From the IMG/VR virus record IMGVR_UViG_2923355181_000001: 42,980 nucleotides of DNA. One strand, given 5' to 3'. The stretch comes from a virus. Lineage: Duplodnaviria > Heunggongvirae > Uroviricota > Caudoviricetes. The position numbers and the translations under genes are program-made. Below are positions 6,368-20,786 of this stretch, piece by piece. Every line of letters begins with the position of its first letter. Position 1 is the first letter of the stretch. The notes beneath the pieces were generated by a model. The model saw nothing but the letters and a program-made list of their open reading frames with translations, was not told the origin of the DNA and did no database searches.

Positions 6368-6781
6368 CTATTTTGTCTGGTTTTTGGCTTCAAGTAGTTC
6401 TTTTAGCAGTAGATCGAAGTGCTCTCTTTTTTCTTTTAGCTCATTGATTAATTTATTTTTTTCGCTCTCAGGCAGTCCTCTGAATAGTTGCAGTAGAGCC
6501 TGTTCTTGCGGGGTTAGTTCTTGATTGTAATTACCCGGGTGTAGTGTGGATTCATCCAAATATTCCCCTTCATTCATGAAGAAAAAATGAACAGGGTATC
6601 CGGTCACTTTTGCTAGCTTGTCTAATTTATCTTTTCTTGGAGTTACCCCATTACACCATGCCTGAACTGATTGAGCCGTAACCCCAATATGGCGAGCTAA
6701 CTCAGATTGAGACCAGCCTAAGTCTTTTAGAATCCGTTGTAGTCGGCTAGCAAAAGCCATGTTTTTCGTTTTTGTGTTCAT
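6368..6781 (-). CDS. prophage repressor, HTH (XRE-type) without peptidase S24 domain
   Basis: HTH-like segment FASRLQRILKDLGWSQSELARHIGVTAQSVQAWCNG; divergent from a Cro-like gene; track ORF begins at TTG 6796, ATG 6781 or 6760 more likely (possibly leaderless). Confidence 0.7.
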   Translation of the reverse strand: MNTKTKNMAFASRLQRILKDLGWSQSELARHIGVTAQSVQAWCNGVTPRKDKLDKLAKVTGYPVHFFFMNEGEYLDESTLHPGNYNQELTPQEQALLQLFRGLPESEKNKLINELKEKREHFDLLLKELLEAKNQTK

Positions 6782-6879: not shown

Positions 6880-7110
6880 ATGGATAAACAACTGCAAGAC
6901 AAAATTCTTTCCGTAATGAGTCAATCCGAGTTAGGGCGGCGATTAGGGAAAAAACCACAAACGGTAAGCCTCTGGTTCAAAGGACGGGTTCCCGGTGAAG
7001 AGGTTTTGCGCACATCTGAAGCTCTTGAATGGCGCGTGACCCCTCATGATCTTAGACCGGATCTTTACCCAAACCCAGATGACAGCTTGCCTAAAACGGA
7101 AGCAGCTTAA
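6880..7110 (+). CDS. Cro/YdaS-like small DNA-binding protein
   Basis: 76 aa from ATG 6880 with AAGGAG 6 nt upstream; HTH-like LGRRLGKKPQTVSLWFKGR; divergent from repressor. Confidence 0.6.
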   Translation: MDKQLQDKILSVMSQSELGRRLGKKPQTVSLWFKGRVPGEEVLRTSEALEWRVTPHDLRPDLYPNPDDSLPKTEAA

Positions 7111-7168
7111 CTGTTGGTGAGCCCCAAATCTGATTAAGCGTAATCAATTTTTAGCGACAGGAGACGCT

Positions 7169-7645
7169 ATGGAAAACCAAGAGGAATTACAAAAAGAGAT
7201 TTTGACCTGGGCGGCAAGGGCAGGGCAGGAACTCGTCACGATTGAAATCTGCCGGGCCTGGTTCAGTCAGGGACGCAATGATGAGTTGAGACTACATGAA
7301 TTTGAGGACGCGGACGGCAACGTGGACTGGAGAGCCATCAACAACAATCGGCAGAAAATCTTTCGCTGGTTACGTGGCGAGACAACGGCGGCGCGCCGAA
7401 AAACTCAGGTGCTGGCCAGTGTGATGAAAGCCGTGCTACCCGCAGAACGGCGGGCACGTCTGGAGTCGCCGGGCGATCCCGTTTTGCTGGCAACGCTGGC
7501 GGCAAAAGAAGGGGTGGAAGCGATTAACGCTGTACATCTCCACTTCGCGCCAGAGTTAACTATTCAGGAAATTGACGAAGCAATAGCGGCGCTGGTAGCG
7601 ACGCGAGGAGCAGTGATACGCACTGCGCAAGACCACCATGCATGA
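7169..7645 (+). CDS. YdaT-like / CII-position regulatory protein
   Basis: 158-aa ORF immediately after the cro-like gene, AGGAG RBS; family assignment is by position and size. Confidence 0.4.
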   Translation: MENQEELQKEILTWAARAGQELVTIEICRAWFSQGRNDELRLHEFEDADGNVDWRAINNNRQKIFRWLRGETTAARRKTQVLASVMKAVLPAERRARLESPGDPVLLATLAAKEGVEAINAVHLHFAPELTIQEIDEAIAALVATRGAVIRTAQDHHA

Positions 7646-11469: not shown

Positions 11470-11691
11470 ATGTTTGGCGATAAACTGGAGTTACCACGGA
11501 ACGGGCGGATAGTGCTCTATATTTCAGATTACAAAGTAACCCGGGCTGAGGTGTTGGAACCGGAAAAACATCTGGTCACGTTACCGGACATTATTGAGTT
11601 GTATAAGCGGGTCGGATATGTGGACTTGCATCGCGATGATGTTCCCGTTGAGTGTATGGAATGTGAACACCGGAGGTTTGAAGTTGATTGA
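11470..11691 (+). CDS. hypothetical protein
   Basis: 73-aa ORF with strong RBS GGAGGGAAAGG. Confidence 0.5.
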   Translation: MFGDKLELPRNGRIVLYISDYKVTRAEVLEPEKHLVTLPDIIELYKRVGYVDLHRDDVPVECMECEHRRFEVD

Positions 11692-11963
11692 ATTGACTTA
11701 GAAAAAGTCCGGGGCTATAGTTTCCGCGCAGCCGCAAAATCGGTTGCCGGGATTGGCGTCCCGGATATCTAAGTGACGCATAGCCGCGTTAGCGGTTTTT
11801 TTATGTGTTAGGCACGGCCACATTCGCATTATGGTGGGCTGTGTGGGGGCTTCTGTGGAAGCGCCGGGTTCACTTAGCCGGTTACGCCAACCCTGCACAG
11901 CTCACCACCAGATGATTGGCGTCGCTGGTGGTGATGAAAAAAACACTAAGTGAGGCCACTGCG

Positions 11964-12752
11964 ATGACAGTCCAAATATCTGCGGAATCCCTTTCTCCGC
12001 TACATCATAACCAACTTCCCGTCATCACTACTGAATTGCTTGCCAGTTTGTATGGCACGGAAGTAAATGGTATCCAGCAAAACTTCAAGCGCAACATCGC
12101 CAGATTTGTCGTAGGAAAGCATTTTTTTAAGCTGGAAGGTAATGAATTACGCGACTTCAAAAACAGACTGACAGATAGTCAGTCAGTTGCTAAACATACC
12201 CGATCCCTCATTCTCTGGACAGAACGCGGCGCAGCTCGCCATGCCAAAATGCTGGAAACAGAACAGGCCTGGGAAGTTTTCGAAAAGCTGGAAGATTGTT
12301 ATTTTAGCCAGCGTCCAGAGAGGCGGAGTACAACTACCGATGACCGTACTCCCTTGCGTGATGCCGTTAATATACTGGTCGGCAAGAAAGGCATGATGTA
12401 TCCCGATGCCTACACCATGATTCATCAACGCTTCGCCGTCTCTCACATAGAACAACTGTCACAGACGCAAATGTTAGAGGCGATTGAATACATCCACTGC
12501 CTGCTACTCGATGAAAATCACCCAACCATTCCAGATTTTTCTTTTATCACCACTATCAAAAATGGAAAAGTGACCGGGATGCGCCATGTTGCCAAAGGCG
12601 AACATCTGATGACCTTTGACGCTTTCAAAGAGATCGCTGAGCGGGCAGGGTATCTGGTGATCCACAGCGACAATCTGCGAAGTATGACACTGGATAAATT
12701 GATGGTAATGGGGAAAAAGTCGGCTATATCCGTTGCTAATTCAGCATTTTGA
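11964..12752 (+). CDS. phage antirepressor-like protein (ORF6N/KilA-type)
   Basis: Track ORF starts TTG 11916; ATG 11964 preceded by GAGG; N-terminal region resembles antirepressor N-domains. Confidence 0.55.
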   Translation: MTVQISAESLSPLHHNQLPVITTELLASLYGTEVNGIQQNFKRNIARFVVGKHFFKLEGNELRDFKNRLTDSQSVAKHTRSLILWTERGAARHAKMLETEQAWEVFEKLEDCYFSQRPERRSTTTDDRTPLRDAVNILVGKKGMMYPDAYTMIHQRFAVSHIEQLSQTQMLEAIEYIHCLLLDENHPTIPDFSFITTIKNGKVTGMRHVAKGEHLMTFDAFKEIAERAGYLVIHSDNLRSMTLDKLMVMGKKSAISVANSAF

Positions 12753-12848: not shown

Positions 12849-12926
12849 ATAAAACAGTTACATATGCACTTGATGACTAAGCTGGCACCAGGTTAACACC
12901 TGGCGCCAGCTTGAAGGAGACTTCAG

Positions 12927-13850
12927 TTATTGGTTTCTGAGGAAAGCGATTCTTGAAAGGGTCATTTGCGTCTGGCAGTCGACCATTTTCTTGACTTCAG
13001 CATCTGTTCCCTGCATTGAAACTTTACCGCACATAGCATCCTTAGTTTTGATCCACTGACGCTGAGAAGGCAGCAAATCTTTTTTCTTCGCCGGGGTTAA
13101 CTTGCTCCAGACGGTACTCAAATCAGAGTCGGCATTCGCAAATGCCATTCGGGACTGATCAAGGTTGTCAGCTTTTTGCGGCTGAAGTTGTGCCTGTCTC
13201 TCTATTTGCTTCTCCGCCTCATACTTAGCCTGTTCTTGCGCCCTGAGTTGCACCTGTTGTTCCGCTTCAATTTGACTCTGTTGGGCATCCTTAGCCTGCT
13301 GGATTTTCTGCTGCTCAACGATCGGGGTGATAATGGAAAGCGATGTCAGTAAAGCGGCGCCCACTGATATCGGATTATCAGTAGAGGTTTTTACAAAAAC
13401 GTTTTTCTGATCGTCGGTCGCCTGCACGGTGTAGGTGATACGTTTTGAAAAGGCGTTTGCGTTGTTCTCCAAAAACAGGCTTTCCATTTGCTTATCGAGA
13501 TTACGATTAAAATTCTTTCTGTAAGCATCTGAAAGCTGGACGTACTCGTTCGCAGATAGAGTCATCGTCACGGTCCCTTCACAAGTTTTCATTGTGCTGC
13601 CCGTGTCACTTGATGTTGTGGAGATCTCAGAGATGGCTAGTTTGATCTTGTCCAGTGTGCTTCGTTTGGTCTGATTAGTGACATCAGGGTATTTATCGAC
13701 CTGTTCAGAGAGTCCTTCATAAGCAGATTTTTTTAATAAATCCATGAGAGCTGACTGGGTTATTTCCGAAGAACAACCGATCTCATCTTTTTTGTTATCA
13801 CAGCCTGTAAGGGCAATGGCGAGTAAGAGTACTGAGTATTTTAATCTCAT
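12927..13850 (-). CDS. lipoprotein with possible C-terminal DUF1311 (LprI-like) domain
   Basis: Signal peptide and lipobox MRLKYSVLLLAIALTGC; coiled-coil Q/E-rich middle; C-terminal QRQWIKTKDAMCG...VDCQ...TLSRIAFL pattern. Confidence 0.55.
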   Translation of the reverse strand: MRLKYSVLLLAIALTGCDNKKDEIGCSSEITQSALMDLLKKSAYEGLSEQVDKYPDVTNQTKRSTLDKIKLAISEISTTSSDTGSTMKTCEGTVTMTLSANEYVQLSDAYRKNFNRNLDKQMESLFLENNANAFSKRITYTVQATDDQKNVFVKTSTDNPISVGAALLTSLSIITPIVEQQKIQQAKDAQQSQIEAEQQVQLRAQEQAKYEAEKQIERQAQLQPQKADNLDQSRMAFANADSDLSTVWSKLTPAKKKDLLPSQRQWIKTKDAMCGKVSMQGTDAEVKKMVDCQTQMTLSRIAFLRNQ

Positions 13851-15038
13851 GAATTCCCTTTAGAGTAAGGATTGGTTTTTAAGACGCGGTCTGTAATCAG
13901 TCCCGAGAGCTACAGTAAACAACGCTGAGCACTGAACGCATCACAGGTAAGGTAAAAGGTGATATCGGCAAAGGCTGTGAAACCTTTAATTCAACAGATG
14001 GGAACGGTATGCGCAGGATCCTGTAACGACGCTCCCAAAACCGGAAACCTGTAAGGCATGTTTTCGCTGCTGAACTTAATATACGAACCTGCACTATCAT
14101 GAACATATTTTATATCGTTATACCCCGAGTGATTGTGCCCGGCAATGGATAGTGTCCTGGAGGAACTATTTCTACTGTAAAAGGTAGATATTTAATTTCA
14201 GTTTTGAATTATTCCCTGCTGTTAATAACAATGGCTGTATATGGCACCGAGTAGGCATTTTTTCGCTTACTGAAGGGCAGCTGTGAGCGAGGAACAGACT
14301 TTCCCTACTTCGTTGAGAGTACACCTAGTACAATCAAGGCTAAATGATAAAAATATACAAAATATCATATTTATGATATATATAATGGCATTAATCTTAT
14401 TCTTGGATTACGTTGAAAGGGTAATATTATATTTGTGTAACATAGTTTAGATAACAATGCCGTTATGGGGGGGGGAAAGACATTTCAACATATTAGCTTT
14501 GTATCTAACGCTCATGTAGATCTCGATTTTGAACTTAAAGAACAATTATTTTTTAGAGAGCAAGGTATTTTTGGGGAACAAAAACATAAAGTAATGGAGA
14601 GAGGAGAATGTATCAAAAAATCATCGATTTAATTTAGATTGTCCGTATAGTTGGGGGTAAGTCGAATCGCTGGGCTACATGGAATATTGTGTCAAGTAAA
14701 AATATATTTCAATCTTGCAATAACCGATTGTTGAAAATAATGTCAAATCTTAATGGTGAATGGGGAGAATATAATAAACATGAGTCGATATTATGCAAAT
14801 GGATTTAAATATTTTATACCCGAAGACATAGGGTTTCGAGAGTTCGATGAGACTACTTTGAATGCTTTCGAATTTGCTGGCTAAAACATATAGGTTATAT
14901 CTTACATCTGTTTGTAATGGAGCGTAGATGCGACAAGCTACACCATAATAATCATATTATGATATATTGTTAAGTTGTTATGGCATTAAATAAAATTATG
15001 TCATTTTGTTAACCAAGCAAGAATCAAAGGACTTTTAG

Positions 15039-15737
15039 ATGGGTACGGCATTAATTTCAAGCTTTATTAGTGGTGCAATAGCTATAATCTCTATTGCTAT
15101 ATCTACTTATAATCAGAATAGAATAAACAAGCTCAATGAATCACTGGATGTAAGGAGAAAACATCAGTACTATATTGAACCGTTAATTCGCTCAGCTTCA
15201 GACTTACAAAGCCGTATTTATAATATATTAGAATTGGGGTTCATTGAAGAGTTTTATCATAATGGGAATAAGCGCCAACAAGATTATGTTATCAACAATA
15301 CTGTTTTTCTTTTTTCCCAGTTTTTTGCATGGACAGAAGCTGCCCGCATAGACATTCAATACCTTAGCCTAGAAAAAAATAAAAAAATGAGGGAGTTTAT
15401 TAGATTACAGAACAATATTAACTCATTAATCCAAACAGACGTCTTTGGTCAGTATTTTATGTTTTTCATAGGAGAGCAGAGAGCTATTGCAGAAAAGATG
15501 CTGATATCAACAGATACTGGATTTGATTGCATAGGTTACGGCAGTTTCACAAAGGAAAATTGCTTTATCAATGAGCCATTTTTTTTAGATTTAAACAATG
15601 AAGTGATAAATATGACAAGAGATATCGGAATTTATAAAGAAAGGCTAATCAGAATACAGCACGCGTTAATCGATTTAATTAATTTTCTTGATCCTGGCAT
15701 GATTCGATTTGACGGAAAAAAATATGGAAAAATATAA
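15039..15737 (+). CDS. hypothetical membrane-anchored protein in strongly AT-rich cargo
   Basis: 232-aa ORF, AAAGGA RBS, N-terminal hydrophobic helix ALISSFISGAIAIISIAISTY; codon usage and GC far below flanking phage genes. Confidence 0.6.
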   Translation: MGTALISSFISGAIAIISIAISTYNQNRINKLNESLDVRRKHQYYIEPLIRSASDLQSRIYNILELGFIEEFYHNGNKRQQDYVINNTVFLFSQFFAWTEAARIDIQYLSLEKNKKMREFIRLQNNINSLIQTDVFGQYFMFFIGEQRAIAEKMLISTDTGFDCIGYGSFTKENCFINEPFFLDLNNEVINMTRDIGIYKERLIRIQHALIDLINFLDPGMIRFDGKKYGKI

Positions 15738-15921
15738 CCCAGATGATTCGTATCAAGGTAAGTTGCTATATGTATCAATTTAATTATGGTTGGGTGAAAT
15801 TTATGTTAATAGTAGCGGAGGGTTAGTTAAAATATGCTCTCAGTGATTTTTGGATAGTTCTTTTATTTATCATTGAAAGTAAATATGTATAGCTTCAAGA
15901 TTTACAAGTGAATCTGTTTAT

Positions 15922-15955
15922 TGACAGTCCGCTTATGGCACAGAGCGGACTGTCA
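15922..15955 (+). terminator. 12-bp perfect inverted repeat, candidate terminator or protein site
   Basis: TGACAGTCCGCT-N10-AGCGGACTGTCA followed by A/T-rich sequence. Confidence 0.3.
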
Positions 15956-16199
15956 TATTAAATTTGGCTCCACGCCATAGATGTGTCAGCTCATATCTTA
16001 TCTAATACACACAATAACTTTCTCATTCTTGGAGAATTATTTTTTTAAGGGTAGGTGTTGACGTTAGAGCAAAAGAATGGTGATTTTTTTGATGTGTATT
16101 ACGTTGGAACTGATGGGAATAACTATCTGTTTTCAACGCACTGCTAATTTATCAAGGCCCTTTGATCAGGGCCTTCGAAAGACTGTTGGACCGAGAGAG

Positions 16200-16805
16200 T
16201 TACTTGCGTTTAAAAAGGTATTTTGTCACGACCAGCACGAGGCCGAATACCTCTGTCAAAGTACCGCCCATGTACAACTGTAGTGTTAAATCCTCAAATT
16301 CCAGCTTACCTGCGCCGTCGGCAATAAATACACCATTCATTATCAGAAGTTGGAAAGCAAGGATAATCAGGAACCATTTCCCGTATCGTTTTTTTAGAGC
16401 GATTTCTGCTTCAAAATCTTTGTTGTTGAGTTGTTTGCGCTCATGCTCGGTATCAAGTGAATTCACCTGTTTCACAGATGTGAACTCGGTCAAGATTTTA
16501 CTCTCAGTACGGGTGACTTGTTGAGAGGGTGTAGCAGTTGGAATTCTTTTGCTAGACGCAGCTACAGCCATTTTGCGAGCTTCGGCAGCTCTTTTTCTGG
16601 CTATTCCGCGAATACGGACAGCCGTTTTTTTGGGGGCGTGCGAAACCTTTGGCTGAGGTGAAGCTTCGTCAGGAGACTGAACCGGAGTTTCATCGTCCTC
16701 CGGCTCAACCTCTTCTGCTAACTGACGGTGTAGGTTGAGGGAATCCTTCAGTCTGCGTGCTACTTCCTGTTTGAAACGGCTGTTAAAATCGTCATCCGAT
16801 GGCAT
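16200..16805 (-). CDS. hypothetical membrane protein with charged N-terminal region and C-terminal hydrophobic hairpin
   Basis: 201-aa ORF immediately downstream of the ImmA-like gene on the same strand; C-terminal WFLIILAFQLLIMNGVFIA...VFGLVLVVTKYLF hydrophobic. Confidence 0.6.
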   Translation of the reverse strand: MPSDDDFNSRFKQEVARRLKDSLNLHRQLAEEVEPEDDETPVQSPDEASPQPKVSHAPKKTAVRIRGIARKRAAEARKMAVAASSKRIPTATPSQQVTRTESKILTEFTSVKQVNSLDTEHERKQLNNKDFEAEIALKKRYGKWFLIILAFQLLIMNGVFIADGAGKLEFEDLTLQLYMGGTLTEVFGLVLVVTKYLFKRK

Positions 16806-16814
16806 TTTAAAGCG

Positions 16815-17303
16815 TTACCCCAACCTCAAGTTCTTTAAACGATAAGTCATCGCATCGTCAGATACGCCAAAATAATGCGCCATTATATAACTTGGTTGAC
16901 CGTCAGCGTGCAGTTTTCTGACCTCATCTACCGGCATCAGAAGTTCTGCTGCGAACTTGTTTGCAAAAATTTCATCAGGATGCGTTCCGGCGCTTGCGGT
17001 TTCGCCACGTAAATCAACGTACTCATATTCATCGCTATGCGATGCTTGCCGGGCGATGTAATGCCCCAACTCATGCCCACATGAAAAACGTTGACGAACT
17101 TTGTTGTCATCACTGTTTAGAAAGATCGCTGGATCTTGATCTTTTTGTTTAATCAGTGCGCCAGAAACTTTCCCAGGAAGATCGGTAATAAAAACATCTA
17201 ATCCCATGTCGTGAGCAATTTTCGCTGGATCAACAGGGAAACCACGCCCGCACCAGAACGTGTCCAGCACTCGCCGGGCGTGCTCTCTTGGGTTGGTAGC
17301 CAT
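16815..17303 (-). CDS. ImmA/IrrE-family (COG2856-like) zinc metallopeptidase
   Basis: 162-aa ORF with HEXXH motif (SCGHELGHYIA); strong RBS GGAGGAG. Confidence 0.65.
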   Translation of the reverse strand: MATNPREHARRVLDTFWCGRGFPVDPAKIAHDMGLDVFITDLPGKVSGALIKQKDQDPAIFLNSDDNKVRQRFSCGHELGHYIARQASHSDEYEYVDLRGETASAGTHPDEIFANKFAAELLMPVDEVRKLHADGQPSYIMAHYFGVSDDAMTYRLKNLRLG

Positions 17304-17679
17304 AGCTCCTCCAGTTACTGCATTACGATTATTGGTTGAAATATAGACAGCATGTTCCGTACCACATTCCTGTAAAAGTGCAAATTCTGCACTTCTGGTA
17401 CGATATTAACTGTTAGTAGTAAAGTCTTCCAGATAAATCACTTTAAAATCTTGTGAATTGCTTGCTTTTTACGCTGTATTGTGGATGGTTCAATGTTTCC
17501 AGTAAAAACATACATGATAATCATGAGTTTAGTGTTTTTTTAGGCGTCTATATGTTTCTGGAAAATACAGGTCTAACCTGATCTTATCGTTGAGATTTTT
17601 TGTACTCAGTATGCGTGAACGATTCGACCAGGTGACTGTGTACGTGAAGAAGACCGCCCTTAATATTTTAAATGTGCAA

Positions 17680-17700
17680 CCCCTCAGAAGAGGGGCTACT
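17680..17700 (-). terminator. hairpin terminator after the 77-aa gene
   Basis: CCCCTC-agaa-GAGGGG directly 3' of the gene stop, followed on the minus strand by a U-containing tract. Confidence 0.4.
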
Positions 17701-17701
17701 C

Positions 17702-17935
17702 TCACTTCTGCAGTATCTCGCCAATACCTGCCAGATTCTCGTCCATCTTGTCACCGTTTTCGATAAGGATGGAGTTGAGCCGATTCAGTTGCATAGCAAT
17801 TTCAAGTTTGATTAAGGTATCCACCGATACACCAGTTTCTTTTGCTAACTTAGTAAGAGCCGCAGCTCGATTGGCTAAATTAAAATCATCGAACTCATAA
17901 CGACTTCTGCACGGCTGGTTGCCTAACGTACCCAT
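17702..17935 (-). CDS. hypothetical small protein (possible DNA-binding)
   Basis: 77-aa ORF with RBS ATGAGGAA; own terminator. Confidence 0.45.
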   Translation of the reverse strand: MGTLGNQPCRSRYEFDDFNLANRAAALTKLAKETGVSVDTLIKLEIAMQLNRLNSILIENGDKMDENLAGIGEILQK

Positions 17936-18178
17936 AGTGATTCCTCATGATATAAAGACCCAACAATATAAATTACCAGGCACATCATAAGATAGGGTTC
18001 CAGCCCATATTTTCAAATATTTGCAAGTATCACCGTTCAGTCTAAAAAGTTGGATGATGATTTAACGAGCCATAACAAAACCCTGCCTCGGAGGTTTTTT
18101 CTTTTTTATAGAACTCAGCGGCGTGAAAACGAATAATAAATTGTGCAAATAGTGCAGTTTTTATTATTCGAGGTAATT

Positions 18179-18820: not shown

Positions 18821-18931
18821 TGACCATAAACGGTTTAATCCCCTATAAAACCGTTTAATAAAATTCACGACGTGAATATAATTGTTCATTATTCCCTCAT
18901 TGTATTTGGCGTTATGACAAATGCCATAAAA

Positions 18932-18951
18932 TACTGTATAAATATACAGGT
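18932..18951 (+). promoter_or_regulatory. LexA (SOS) box
   Basis: ATACTGTATAAATATACAGG: CTGT-N8-ACAG with A/T-rich spacer, near-perfect match to TACTGTATATATATACAGTA; about 20 nt upstream of ORF start 18972. Confidence 0.7.
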
Positions 18952-18971
18952 TGTGGCATTGGGGGGAAGAC

Positions 18972-19151
18972 ATGAATATTCAAGAATCTATAGGCGAACT
19001 ACCGGAAACATGCCGGGCTGTTATCAAGCGTAAGGACGGACACATCGTTGGTGTGCGTGTTCTGACCGATGATGAGCGGATTGCCAGCCTGATGGCGTTT
19101 CTCGAGTTGGCAGAAATAGCTGGATATACTATTACACCCCCTGACGCGTAA
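18972..19151 (+). CDS. small LexA-controlled protein, candidate antirepressor
   Basis: 59 aa from ATG 18972 with G-rich RBS (track ORF from TTG 18951); LexA box overlaps its promoter region. Confidence 0.5.
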   Translation: MNIQESIGELPETCRAVIKRKDGHIVGVRVLTDDERIASLMAFLELAEIAGYTITPPDA

Positions 19152-19228
19152 AACACGGTATAATATCGGTGCTGGATTGAACACCCGGCACCATTTTCTG
19201 AACACTGCCGCGCCACCTGGAGTTAACC

Positions 19229-19825
19229 ATGGCGCAGCATTCATTTATCAGGGTATCCGGCGGTTCGCTAATACCCGCGACACCAGACACGCAACGCTGG
19301 TTGACTGAACGAGTCAAACCAGGTGCTGTTGTGTATGCAGATTTCAAACAGGCGCGTAATCCCGCGTTTCATCGTAAATTTTTCTCACTTCTCAACCTGG
19401 GCTTTGATTACTGGCATCCGTCCGGAGGGGCTATTTCTCCTGCGGAGCGCGAACTGGTTCACGGCTACGTTAAGTTACTGGCGTATTACGGTGGACACGG
19501 TGATGTCATGGCAGAGCTGGCTGATCAGTATCTTCTCGATGAGTCGGAAAAGCGCGCGGGGAGTATCAGTGCGGTGAAGTCGTTCGAGGCGTTTCGCGCA
19601 TGGGCGATTATGGAAGCTGGGTTTTATGACGTTCATCAGATGCCAGACGGCAGTTTGATGCGCGTACCTCGTTCAATCTCGTTTGCAGCGATGGACGATC
19701 TTGAGTTCGGTCAACTGTATTCAGCCGTTTTAGATGTGCTGTGGAATTATATTTTGTTCCGCACATTTGCCTCTCAGGAGGCCGCTGAAAATGCCGCCGC
19801 GCAGCTGCTGGATTACACATCATGA
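19229..19825 (+). CDS. DUF1367-family phage protein (YbcN-like)
   Basis: 198-aa ORF with FFSLLNLGFDYWHPSGGAISPAERELV segment resembling YbcN-type nin-region proteins. Confidence 0.6.
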   Translation: MAQHSFIRVSGGSLIPATPDTQRWLTERVKPGAVVYADFKQARNPAFHRKFFSLLNLGFDYWHPSGGAISPAERELVHGYVKLLAYYGGHGDVMAELADQYLLDESEKRAGSISAVKSFEAFRAWAIMEAGFYDVHQMPDGSLMRVPRSISFAAMDDLEFGQLYSAVLDVLWNYILFRTFASQEAAENAAAQLLDYTS

Positions 19826-20115
19826 AAAAAATCGACCTGAGAAAAGCTGCACGCAGTCGCGCTTGTACTGTGCGTATCCCCGGTGTGTGCAATCACAATC
19901 CTGAAACCAGCGTACTGGCTCATTATCGTCTCGCCGGAACGTGCGGCACAGCCATCAAACCTCACGATATGCAGGGCGCTATCGCCTGCAGTGCGTGTCA
20001 CGATGCCATCGACGGACGTACAAAAACGGATTACGAGCACGACTCATTGTTGTTGATGCACGCTGAGGGAGTTTTCAGAACACTGGCTATCTGGCGCGAT
20101 GAGGAGTTTATCTGA
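19822..20115 (+). CDS. DUF1364-family Cys-rich protein (YbcO-like)
   Basis: 97-aa ORF with CTVRIPGVCNHNPETSVLAHYR and CSACHDAIDGRT cysteine clusters; ATGA coupling. Confidence 0.55.
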   Translation: MKKIDLRKAARSRACTVRIPGVCNHNPETSVLAHYRLAGTCGTAIKPHDMQGAIACSACHDAIDGRTKTDYEHDSLLLMHAEGVFRTLAIWRDEEFI

Positions 20116-20786
20116 TGAGTAACGAGTATTTATTGGAATATACCCGCATAAAACTGCGCGCTGCATTGCGGGATTTGTCTGGTGGTTCTAAGGGGCAACT
20201 GGAAGCATTGTGTGAGCACCCACCGGCAGACAAAAACGCATACCCACGCAAACATATTCACCGTGTGCAGCTGGAGGACCGGACCGTTGATGCTCTGGTT
20301 ACGCCAGTTTACGCTCTGGAAAGTTTCAGCAGACGTCGCCCCGCGCCGCCGATGAGTGATTTTGAATTTGCTGATTCATCCTGGCGGCGTTCTGTGAACT
20401 CGCTGGATGCAAGTCAGCAAGCGTGGTTGCGTTATTGCTACGGTGGTAACCTGGCATTCAAACACCAAACAGCTATTTGTGAGGCTGTCTGGAGTCGCTA
20501 TAAAGGAAACATCCCCGCGTCAACTCAGAGAAAAGTAGTTAAGCGCCTGCTTTCGTTGGTGTGGTTGTCCGTGCAGGCGGTCGCAGCAGCAAATAAACGC
20601 GAGGATTTTAAGGAGATGGCCGGATCTACCCTAGCAGGAATGCTGTCGGTTTCTCGTTCCACCTGGTGCGAAACATACTCCCTGCACTGGGTAGGAATGA
20701 AAGAGGCGGTGAGAGCACTTGATGAAGTGGCACTTCTTGCAACTTTGCATCATTATCAGAACCATTTAGACGACGTTTGCGTATAA
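20115..20786 (+). CDS. late-gene antiterminator Q-like protein
   Basis: 223-aa ORF directly upstream of a promoter/terminator pair and the lysis cassette; assignment mainly positional. Confidence 0.5.
   Translation: MSNEYLLEYTRIKLRAALRDLSGGSKGQLEALCEHPPADKNAYPRKHIHRVQLEDRTVDALVTPVYALESFSRRRPAPPMSDFEFADSSWRRSVNSLDASQQAWLRYCYGGNLAFKHQTAICEAVWSRYKGNIPASTQRKVVKRLLSLVWLSVQAVAAANKREDFKEMAGSTLAGMLSVSRSTWCETYSLHWVGMKEAVRALDEVALLATLHHYQNHLDDVCV

Follow-up and report, generated by a model that had tools for sequence, protein, structure and literature searches.

How might a prophage respond to DNA damage when its repressor is short and shows no self-cleavage domain? This question is raised by a locus in a Caudoviricetes virus record (IMG/VR record IMGVR_UViG_2923355181_000001), of which we analyzed the whole stretch of 42,980 nucleotides (nt), referred to here as the window. 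A sequence resembling the binding site of LexA, the repressor of the SOS response, precedes a 59-amino-acid (aa) open reading frame (ORF), and an initial annotation had proposed that this ORF encodes a small LexA-controlled antirepressor or, alternatively, an SOS-induced toxin or division inhibitor. We found that the 59-aa protein is homologous to known small antirepressors and that its gene, lying behind the LexA box, most likely links induction of the prophage to DNA damage. On the basis of homology, synteny, and conservation, the locus is probably a Gifsy-type switch that couples induction to the SOS response, in which release of LexA would lead to production of an antirepressor and to stoichiometric inactivation of the repressor.

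The CTGT-N8-ACAG pattern occurs once in the window, at 18934-18949. By itself, this bare 16-nt pattern is not significant, being expected 0.39 times per window and present at least once in 34 of 100 shuffled sequences. The full 20-mer, TACTGTATAAATATACAGGT, has at most three mismatches to the palindromic consensus, a level matched by none of the 100 shuffles. A matrix scan for LexA sites across the window, the check for which the initial annotation had asked, returned one strong site: TACTGTATAAATATACAGGT scored 25.0 bits, and the runner-up reached 10.3 bits. The matrix, derived from 20 Escherichia coli SOS boxes, is approximate; its training sites score 13.2-27.2 bits, with a median of 20.8. 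A score of 25 bits was reached in none of 1000 first-order Markov random windows, whose maximum was 21.0. The scan thus confirmed that a near-consensus box, without a second one in the window, precedes the small ORF. The quoted string ATACTG...CAGG had been placed one base off and lies at 18931-18950.

The box ends about 20 nt upstream of the 59-aa ORF and has the features of LexA-regulon sites, namely the CTGT-N8-ACAG pattern with an AT-rich spacer, proximity to TACTGTATATATATACAGTA, and a position over a promoter, so that LexA binding is predicted. As in Gifsy-type operons, it lies outside the immunity region, 12 kb from the repressor gene. The putative sigma-70 promoter was recognized by eye. 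GTTATGACA and TATAWA are retained in all E. coli relatives, and the spacer between them varies. Within this lineage, the CTGT and ACAG half-sites and GTTATGACA are invariant, while the neighboring bases, flanks, and spacer diverge.

The 59-aa ORF, as initially delimited, was confirmed by RefSeq, which calls the identical ORF as a hypothetical protein (WP_001025459.1). It runs from an ATG at 18972 to a stop codon at 19149-19151, with a G-rich Shine-Dalgarno sequence (18961-18969) about 5 nt upstream. The listed homologues carry no better name, and a literature search for WP_001025459 turned up no paper. The protein matches phrog_340, a PHROGs family of unknown function (E = 1.6e-20), and the same family is matched by FsoA (E = 1.1e-26) and, with E values of about 5e-21, by a GfoA-like protein and K-12 Rem. 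FsoA is an antirepressor encoded in the left operon of Fels-1 (Lemire et al. 2011, PMC3121763). The first lead was a weak tblastn match in Fels-1, falling on STM0898.2n, and the FsoA ORF was fixed via the published primers le154 and le162 (Table S1, PMC3121763). Primer le154 encodes the N-terminus (ATG-AAC-TCA-CAG-CAA-ATG-ATG), and le162 encodes the C-terminus (...EAGIRFEEISNVG, followed by a FLAG tag). Both match STM0898.2n exactly, indicating that FsoA is STM0898.2n. In BLASTP, FsoA and the 59-aa protein share 41% identity over 39 aa (E = 3e-8). Similarly, the gfoA tagging primer le163, which encodes ...RLGYRVTPPSDI, led to GfoA-type genes in SEN34 and mEp237, and these coincide with weak tblastn matches of the 59-aa protein.

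The relationship was also evident from a family hidden Markov model (HMM), built from 13 relatives of 59-66 aa obtained by exhaustive search, with the validated proteins excluded. FsoA scored 43.7 bits, an ORF6N protein encoded elsewhere in the window 35.3 bits, the GfoA-like proteins about 30 bits, and K-12 Rem 26.7 bits, compared with 6.3 bits for the best of 3000 shuffled decoys. Alignment of the small-protein family with Rem by hhalign gave a probability of 80.5% (E = 1.3e-5). The family core reads LP-x2-GR-vvI-x3-nG-x-v-x2-R-x-L-x-DDEhI-x-L-x2-F-x-E-x-A-x2-AGY-x-v-x-PP. An AlphaFold2 model of the 59-aa protein (40 sequences) was confident, with a predicted local distance difference test (pLDDT) value of 88, and comprises a short helix, a β-hairpin (residues 15-31), and a helix (residues 40-49) in a soluble α/β fold. 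A sequence search of the Protein Data Bank (PDB) and a Foldseek search of the model against the PDB gave no meaningful match, and no solved structure of the family was found. Pfam-A, in a copy without PF27490, gave no match for the 59-aa protein, FsoA, the GfoA-like proteins, or GftA. By its sequence, the 59-aa protein is an unannotated minimal member of the Rem/GfoA/FsoA family of small antirepressors; it is a small stand-alone protein, as are its relatives and the validated members, which have 78-83 aa.

The repressor of the prophage is of the type on which such proteins act. Pfam detected only helix-turn-helix (HTH) domains and no S24 peptidase, in agreement with the initial description of a short repressor without this domain. 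The start proposed there, 6781, is an alternative ATG; the RefSeq start is 6760, giving 130 aa, and the longest ORF extends to 6796. The protein aligns over its full length with GtgR of Gifsy-2 (33% identity, E = 5e-23) and with DicA (31% identity, E = 3e-15), and these alignments take in a C-terminal L-x-P-x-E-x2-LL-x-LF-x2-LPESE motif. Repressors of the GtgR and DicA type are not cleaved on induction and are inactivated by FsoA/GftA and Rem, respectively (PMC3121763, PMC10448788), with Rem of Qin relieving DicA repression (PMC10448788). The repressor and the early region at 6880..7645, with its divergent Cro-like and YdaT-family genes, constitute a Rac/Qin-like immunity layout.

The arrangement of the locus corresponds to that of the Gifsy operons. 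In Gifsy-2, terminator-like palindromes are followed by a LexA box, dinI, gftA (STM1020.1n), STM1020 (DUF1367, 'irsA homologue'), and Q. This order recurs in SEN34 and mEp237, where GfoA-type genes take the place of gftA. The window contains palindromes, the LexA box, the 59-aa ORF, DUF1367, YbcO, and Q, which is the Gifsy layout minus dinI; the 59-aa ORF lies directly upstream of the irsA-like DUF1367 gene, between the replication genes and Q. No dinI was found in the window as first gene of the operon, and the 59-aa ORF comes straight after the LexA box. Since dinI is dispensable for antirepressor function (PMC3121763), the window represents a variant layout and is not excluded from the Gifsy type.

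Related loci, encoding homologues with 34-76% identity, were compared from E. coli, Serratia, and Edaphovirga. Every one of them has a short HTH repressor and a Cro-like gene, usually with a YdaT gene. The small ORF directly precedes DUF1367 in all except L014, and one strong LexA box (20.9-28.2 bits) lies upstream of the small ORF in each locus except L012. In the E. coli lineage, the box is located at -38; in the other genera, its position ranges from -147 to -189, and a GC-rich terminator precedes it. The initial proposal of a small antirepressor of the Gifsy kind is thus supported by the homology to FsoA, GfoA, and Rem, the Gifsy position, the GtgR/DicA-type repressor, and the conserved box.

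We propose that, in the lysogen, host LexA on the box would block the sigma-70 promoter. DNA damage would activate RecA, leading to the self-cleavage of LexA and to synthesis of the 59-aa protein. This protein would bind the short, non-cleavable GtgR/DicA-type repressor and remove it from its operators. The early operons would then be derepressed and lytic development would start. The features concerned are listed in Table 1.

Table 1. Coordinates of the features discussed, numbered from the first letter of the window.
Feature	Position	Strand	Basis or remark
Prophage repressor, short HTH, GtgR/GfoR/DicA family; presumed antirepressor target	6368..6760	-	Pfam HTH only
Cro-like YdaS-type HTH gene	6880-7110	+	Divergent early gene
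YdaT-family gene	7169-7645	+	Early gene
Second Rem-like small ORF, 73 aa (ORF73)	11470..11691	+	phrog_340 E = 3.5e-21; family HMM 29.3 bits
ORF6N 'anti-repressor' ('Ant') gene	11964..12752	+	Third Rem-like domain at the C-terminus (about aa 197-238)
ImmA/IrrE M78 metallopeptidase, CapP-like	16815-17303	-	PADLOC E = 2.8e-25
Inverted repeat AAACGGTTT-N11-AAACCGTTT	18828..18856	+	Follows immediately on the stop codon of the 213-aa gene
Perfect palindrome ATTCACG-A-CGTGAAT	18863..18877	+	Between the hexamers of promoter-like TTAATA-16-TATAAT (18855-18882)
Putative sigma-70 promoter	18914..18942	+	-35 ATGACA 18914-18919, 17-bp spacer, -10 TATAAA 18937-18942; by eye
LexA (SOS) box TACTGTATAAATATACAGGT	18932..18951	.	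Overlaps the -10 hexamer and the expected transcription start
59-aa Rem/GfoA/FsoA-family small protein, predicted LexA-controlled antirepressor	18972..19151	+	phrog_340, BLASTP, family HMM
Hairpin GGUGCUGG/CCCGGCACC, then AUUUU	19168..19198	+	Centroid structure; between the 59-aa ORF and DUF1367
DUF1367 gene (irsA/STM1020 homologue)	19229..19825	+	Pfam PF07105 E = 6e-78, synteny
YbcO/DUF1364 nuclease-like gene and antiterminator Q gene	19822..20786	+	Same orientation, downstream

Several observations weigh against this proposal. LexA occupancy, the promoter, the binding of the 59-aa protein to the repressor, and the resulting induction are steps that we infer from the DNA and protein sequences. 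A consensus promoter scan did not list the putative promoter, because its -10 hexamer ends in A. The 59-aa protein is without the N-terminal extension of 20-25 residues seen in the validated members, and the precomputed matches of some relatives to Pfam PF27490 'Rem' are labelled 'faint'. The relationship to GftA is borderline: hhalign gave a probability of 69% (E = 4.6e-5), the HMM score was at decoy level, and BLASTP of GftA produced no alignment with either the 59-aa protein or FsoA. This agrees with the report that GfoA and GftA are only distantly related (Lemire, PMC3121763). In addition, members of the family are idiosyncratic in their specificity: the phage that encodes FsoA is not induced by it (PMC3121763), and dicBp was not derepressed by three other candidates from K-12 (PMC10448788). 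The target of the 59-aa protein could therefore be the repressor of another prophage. Finally, the window encodes other possible routes to induction, namely an M78 protease and two more Rem-like modules.

These two modules were detected by a six-frame HMM scan of the window. ORF73 has a strong Shine-Dalgarno sequence. The RefSeq record examined does not annotate it, and elsewhere at least 1000 contigs carry it as a hypothetical protein. The Rem-like part of the ORF6N gene (about 12552-12677) matches phrog_340 (E = 4.2e-12) and is 37% identical to the 59-aa protein over 38 aa, and tblastn of this C-terminal domain against the phage collection gave nothing at E <= 1e-3. The LexA-matrix scan showed no LexA box at ORF73 or ORF6N. 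Both belong to a cassette in the early right region, and their expression would therefore come only after derepression. Some relatives have the cassette, and others with an identical repressor do not. It is missing from L019, L011, L012, and all Serratia and Edaphovirga loci, which retain only the LexA-linked copy. Since the cassette is variable and the LexA-linked copy is retained in these loci, the conserved candidate for the trigger is the 59-aa gene. The cassette, to judge from FsoA, may act in trans or once derepression has occurred.

The M78 gene is always paired with a downstream gene for a 201-aa protein (phrog_5346), forming a minus-strand module at 16200-17303 that may be a DNA-damage-responsive accessory or defence module. 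In principle, the M78 protease could cleave the HTH repressor after DNA damage. Its gene, however, is part of a variable island, lies about 10 kb away from the repressor, and is missing from L019, which has the identical repressor (WP_000853106.1) and keeps only the LexA-linked module, having neither the protease nor ORF73 nor the ORF6N protein.

The alternative that survives best is that the 59-aa protein is an SOS-induced antirepressor but acts mainly in trans on the repressors of other prophages, with the prophage itself being induced via M78, ORF73, or ORF6N. The behavior of FsoA, which acts on Gifsy-2 and has no apparent role in the induction of its own phage (PMC3121763), is a precedent, and the CapP-like protease and the two additional Rem-like modules would supply the necessary means. 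We nevertheless regard this explanation as unlikely, given that the distant M78 gene is dispensed with in relatives carrying an identical repressor, that the ORF73/ORF6N cassette is lost from the loci named above while the LexA-linked copy is invariant across them, and that the cassette has no LexA box and an early right position, from which expression would come only after derepression.

Small LexA-controlled ORFs of the toxin type exist in E. coli, and the 59-aa ORF might accordingly encode an SOS-induced toxin or inhibitor of cell division that resembles TisB, DinQ, SulA, or Kil in its action and leaves the repressor unaffected. Expression of Rem does cause filamentation, though via relief of DicA repression (PMC10448788). 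This second option of the initial annotation is highly improbable in view of the clear homology of the protein to validated antirepressors and the constant co-occurrence of the small gene with short HTH repressors. Moreover, the protein is acidic (10 D+E versus 6 K+R), and its top 19-aa Kyte-Doolittle mean is 1.36, so that it has no transmembrane-like segment such as a membrane toxin of the TisB, DinQ, or Hok kind would contain; the confident prediction of a soluble β-hairpin and helix points the same way. Least probable of all is a fortuitous, non-functional LexA-like site, with the ORF transcribed in the early right or delayed-early operon: the chance expectation for the bare pattern and the silence of the promoter scan at the box would fit, but the score of the full 20-mer, unequalled in the random windows, the invariance of the half-sites amid diverging flanks and spacer, and the independent strong boxes upstream of orthologues in other genera and of Gifsy-type operons argue against it.

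The SOS-wired switch may be part of a wider scheme. We raise, tentatively and as an idea that may well not hold, that the Rem domain is a portable repressor-binding module used by this prophage at three levels, the cassette included. The LexA-gated 59-aa copy would fire the switch, and the early cassette (ORF73 and the ORF6N-Rem fusion), made only after derepression, could lock in the decision. Alternatively, the cassette might act in trans, by inducing or disarming heteroimmune prophages and superinfecting phages. On this view, one interaction domain would be common to the small Gifsy-type and the large Ant-type antirepressors.

The two palindromes upstream of the box are present where they had been described initially, and both are conserved in the E. 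coli relatives. The ATTCAC-N3-GTGAAT half-sites are invariant in the relatives, and the region spanning both palindromes folds better than shuffled sequences (z = -4.5). In relatives, the first 9-mer also reads AAACCGTTT, so that a self-palindromic 9-mer is present in two direct copies, 20 bp apart; as a result, a C-C mismatch would arise in the RNA stem. A terminator scan did not call the palindromes, which are AT-rich and have no U-tract. Terminator-like palindromes lie upstream of the Gifsy LexA boxes (Lemire et al., PMC3121763), and those of the window occupy the same place. A search for further copies of both, immunity region included, yielded nothing convincing. As the immunity region has no similar sites, the palindromes are not operators of the prophage repressor, and this candidate role was rejected. 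They may be an insulating terminator, or else protein-binding sites or an operator for another regulator. Downstream of the 59-aa ORF, the hairpin has a GC-rich 8-bp stem; its region is no more stable than shuffled sequences, and the terminator scan did not call it. It may be a partial terminator that restricts how much SOS-driven transcription continues towards Q. A comparable element in phage 186 is t95a, the partial terminator that follows tum.

Two related loci differ in their control elements. In L012 (E. coli ETEC1738, NZ_CP122768.1, 9960-9985), a 2-bp deletion in the box spacer leaves CTGT-N6-ACAG, and the score drops from about 26 to 14 bits. This prophage also has insertion sequence (IS) insertions and a split terminase gene, so that it is probably in decay and its SOS switch disabled. 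In the Serratia loci L013 and L015-L017, the LexA box is 167-189 nt upstream of the small ORF, and the leader (-140 to -95) has a TTGAC-like element as well as palindromes rich in GATC, TCGATCGTTAAAACCGATCGA among them; these features suggest that control involves a second layer.

The prophage is integrated beside tRNA-Leu, pgsA, and uvrC of E. coli. Its gene order begins with the integrase and left operon, the short HTH repressor on the minus strand, and the divergent YdaS-type Cro-like and YdaT genes. The replication genes, a variable accessory island, the 213-aa gene, and the 59-aa ORF follow, and DUF1367, YbcO/DUF1364, Q, lysis genes, lambda-like heads, and P2-like tails complete the genome. 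The variable island (about 12900-18100) lies between the ORF6N gene and the 213-aa gene. In the window, it contains an LprI-like protein, a 232-aa protein with a weak DRT 'RTasTM' match, and the M78 module, while the relatives compared (L007, L010-L012, L019, and L020) have GmrSD/DUF262, SMEK_N, a methyltransferase, and IS elements instead. After ORF73, a terminator-like CCGC-GTTA-GCGG followed by T7 is present at about 11783-11803.

The 408 bases around the LexA box and small ORF occur with at least 99% identity in 412 of 5426 complete E. coli genomes, and at least 444 of the 5426 carry the 59-aa gene under the label 'hypothetical protein'; many of the genomes belong to sequence type 131 (ST131). 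The 408-base stretch is also found in the phage record vB_EcoM-705R4 (ON470624.1, L001). This record is titled a complete genome and has a length of only 27 kb; it ends within the M78 gene, and the immunity and replication regions are absent. It appears to be a partial copy of the window prophage. Its sole citing paper is a CRISPR survey, whose title and abstract are unrelated to induction.

The mechanism proposed here is a known one, and a specialist would not be surprised by it; the new part is a minimal and so far unannotated member of the family. As an SOS trigger, the 59-aa protein would explain how a lysogen with a non-cleavable repressor responds to fluoroquinolones or mitomycin C. The findings also suggest a rule for annotation, namely a phrog_340/Rem-like ORF that has a LexA box, lies upstream of DUF1367, and is paired with a short GtgR/DicA-type repressor. 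One prophage carries three Rem-domain proteins, of which only one is SOS-wired, and the 59-aa minimal domain offers material for structural work on the repressor-antirepressor contact.

Among known systems, the ImmA/IrrE/CapP metalloproteases provide another DNA-damage route for repressors without an S24 domain, acting by proteolysis and not by stoichiometric binding; the M78 protease of the window is encoded away from the repressor, within the variable accessory island. P22 Ant and the ORF6N, Bro-N, and KilAC proteins are of the same functional class as the 59-aa protein but are large and multidomain. The window's own ORF6N protein has a Rem-like C-terminal domain, is not LexA-controlled, and belongs to an early operon.

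The initial comparison with Tum of phage 186 holds for function and not for sequence. As is proposed for the 59-aa gene, tum is a LexA-repressed antirepressor gene outside the immunity region, and its LexA box overlaps the -10 of p95, just as the window box overlaps its putative -10. Tum, however, has 146 aa and a DinI-like half, acts on a different repressor type, and comes from a P2-like phage. hhalign of Tum against the small-protein family gave a probability of 0.1%, indicating no sequence relation, and phage 186 was not among the tblastn matches at E <= 10. AntC of N15 is placed beside Tum by functional type only, not by sequence.

GftA of Gifsy-2 resembles the 59-aa protein in its position between LexA box/dinI and DUF1367 and in its proposed role, and its cognate repressor is GtgR, the Gifsy-2 homologue of the window repressor; it belongs to phrog_4847, not phrog_340. 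FsoA (Fels-1), GfoA/GfhA (Gifsy-1/-3), and Rem (Qin) have the core sequence and small size in common with the 59-aa protein and are likewise paired with short GtgR/DicA-type repressors. They differ in control: FsoA is controlled by the repressor of its phage, and K-12 rem, unlike the 59-aa gene, has no LexA box between the hokD terminator and rem (K-12 Qin, L021:8904-9130), consistent with the report that the inducing signal of Rem is unknown (PMC10448788). The GfoA-type genes, whose operons include a dinI that does not precede the 59-aa ORF, are LexA-controlled, as is predicted for the 59-aa gene, and like it are situated just upstream of DUF1367/irsA.

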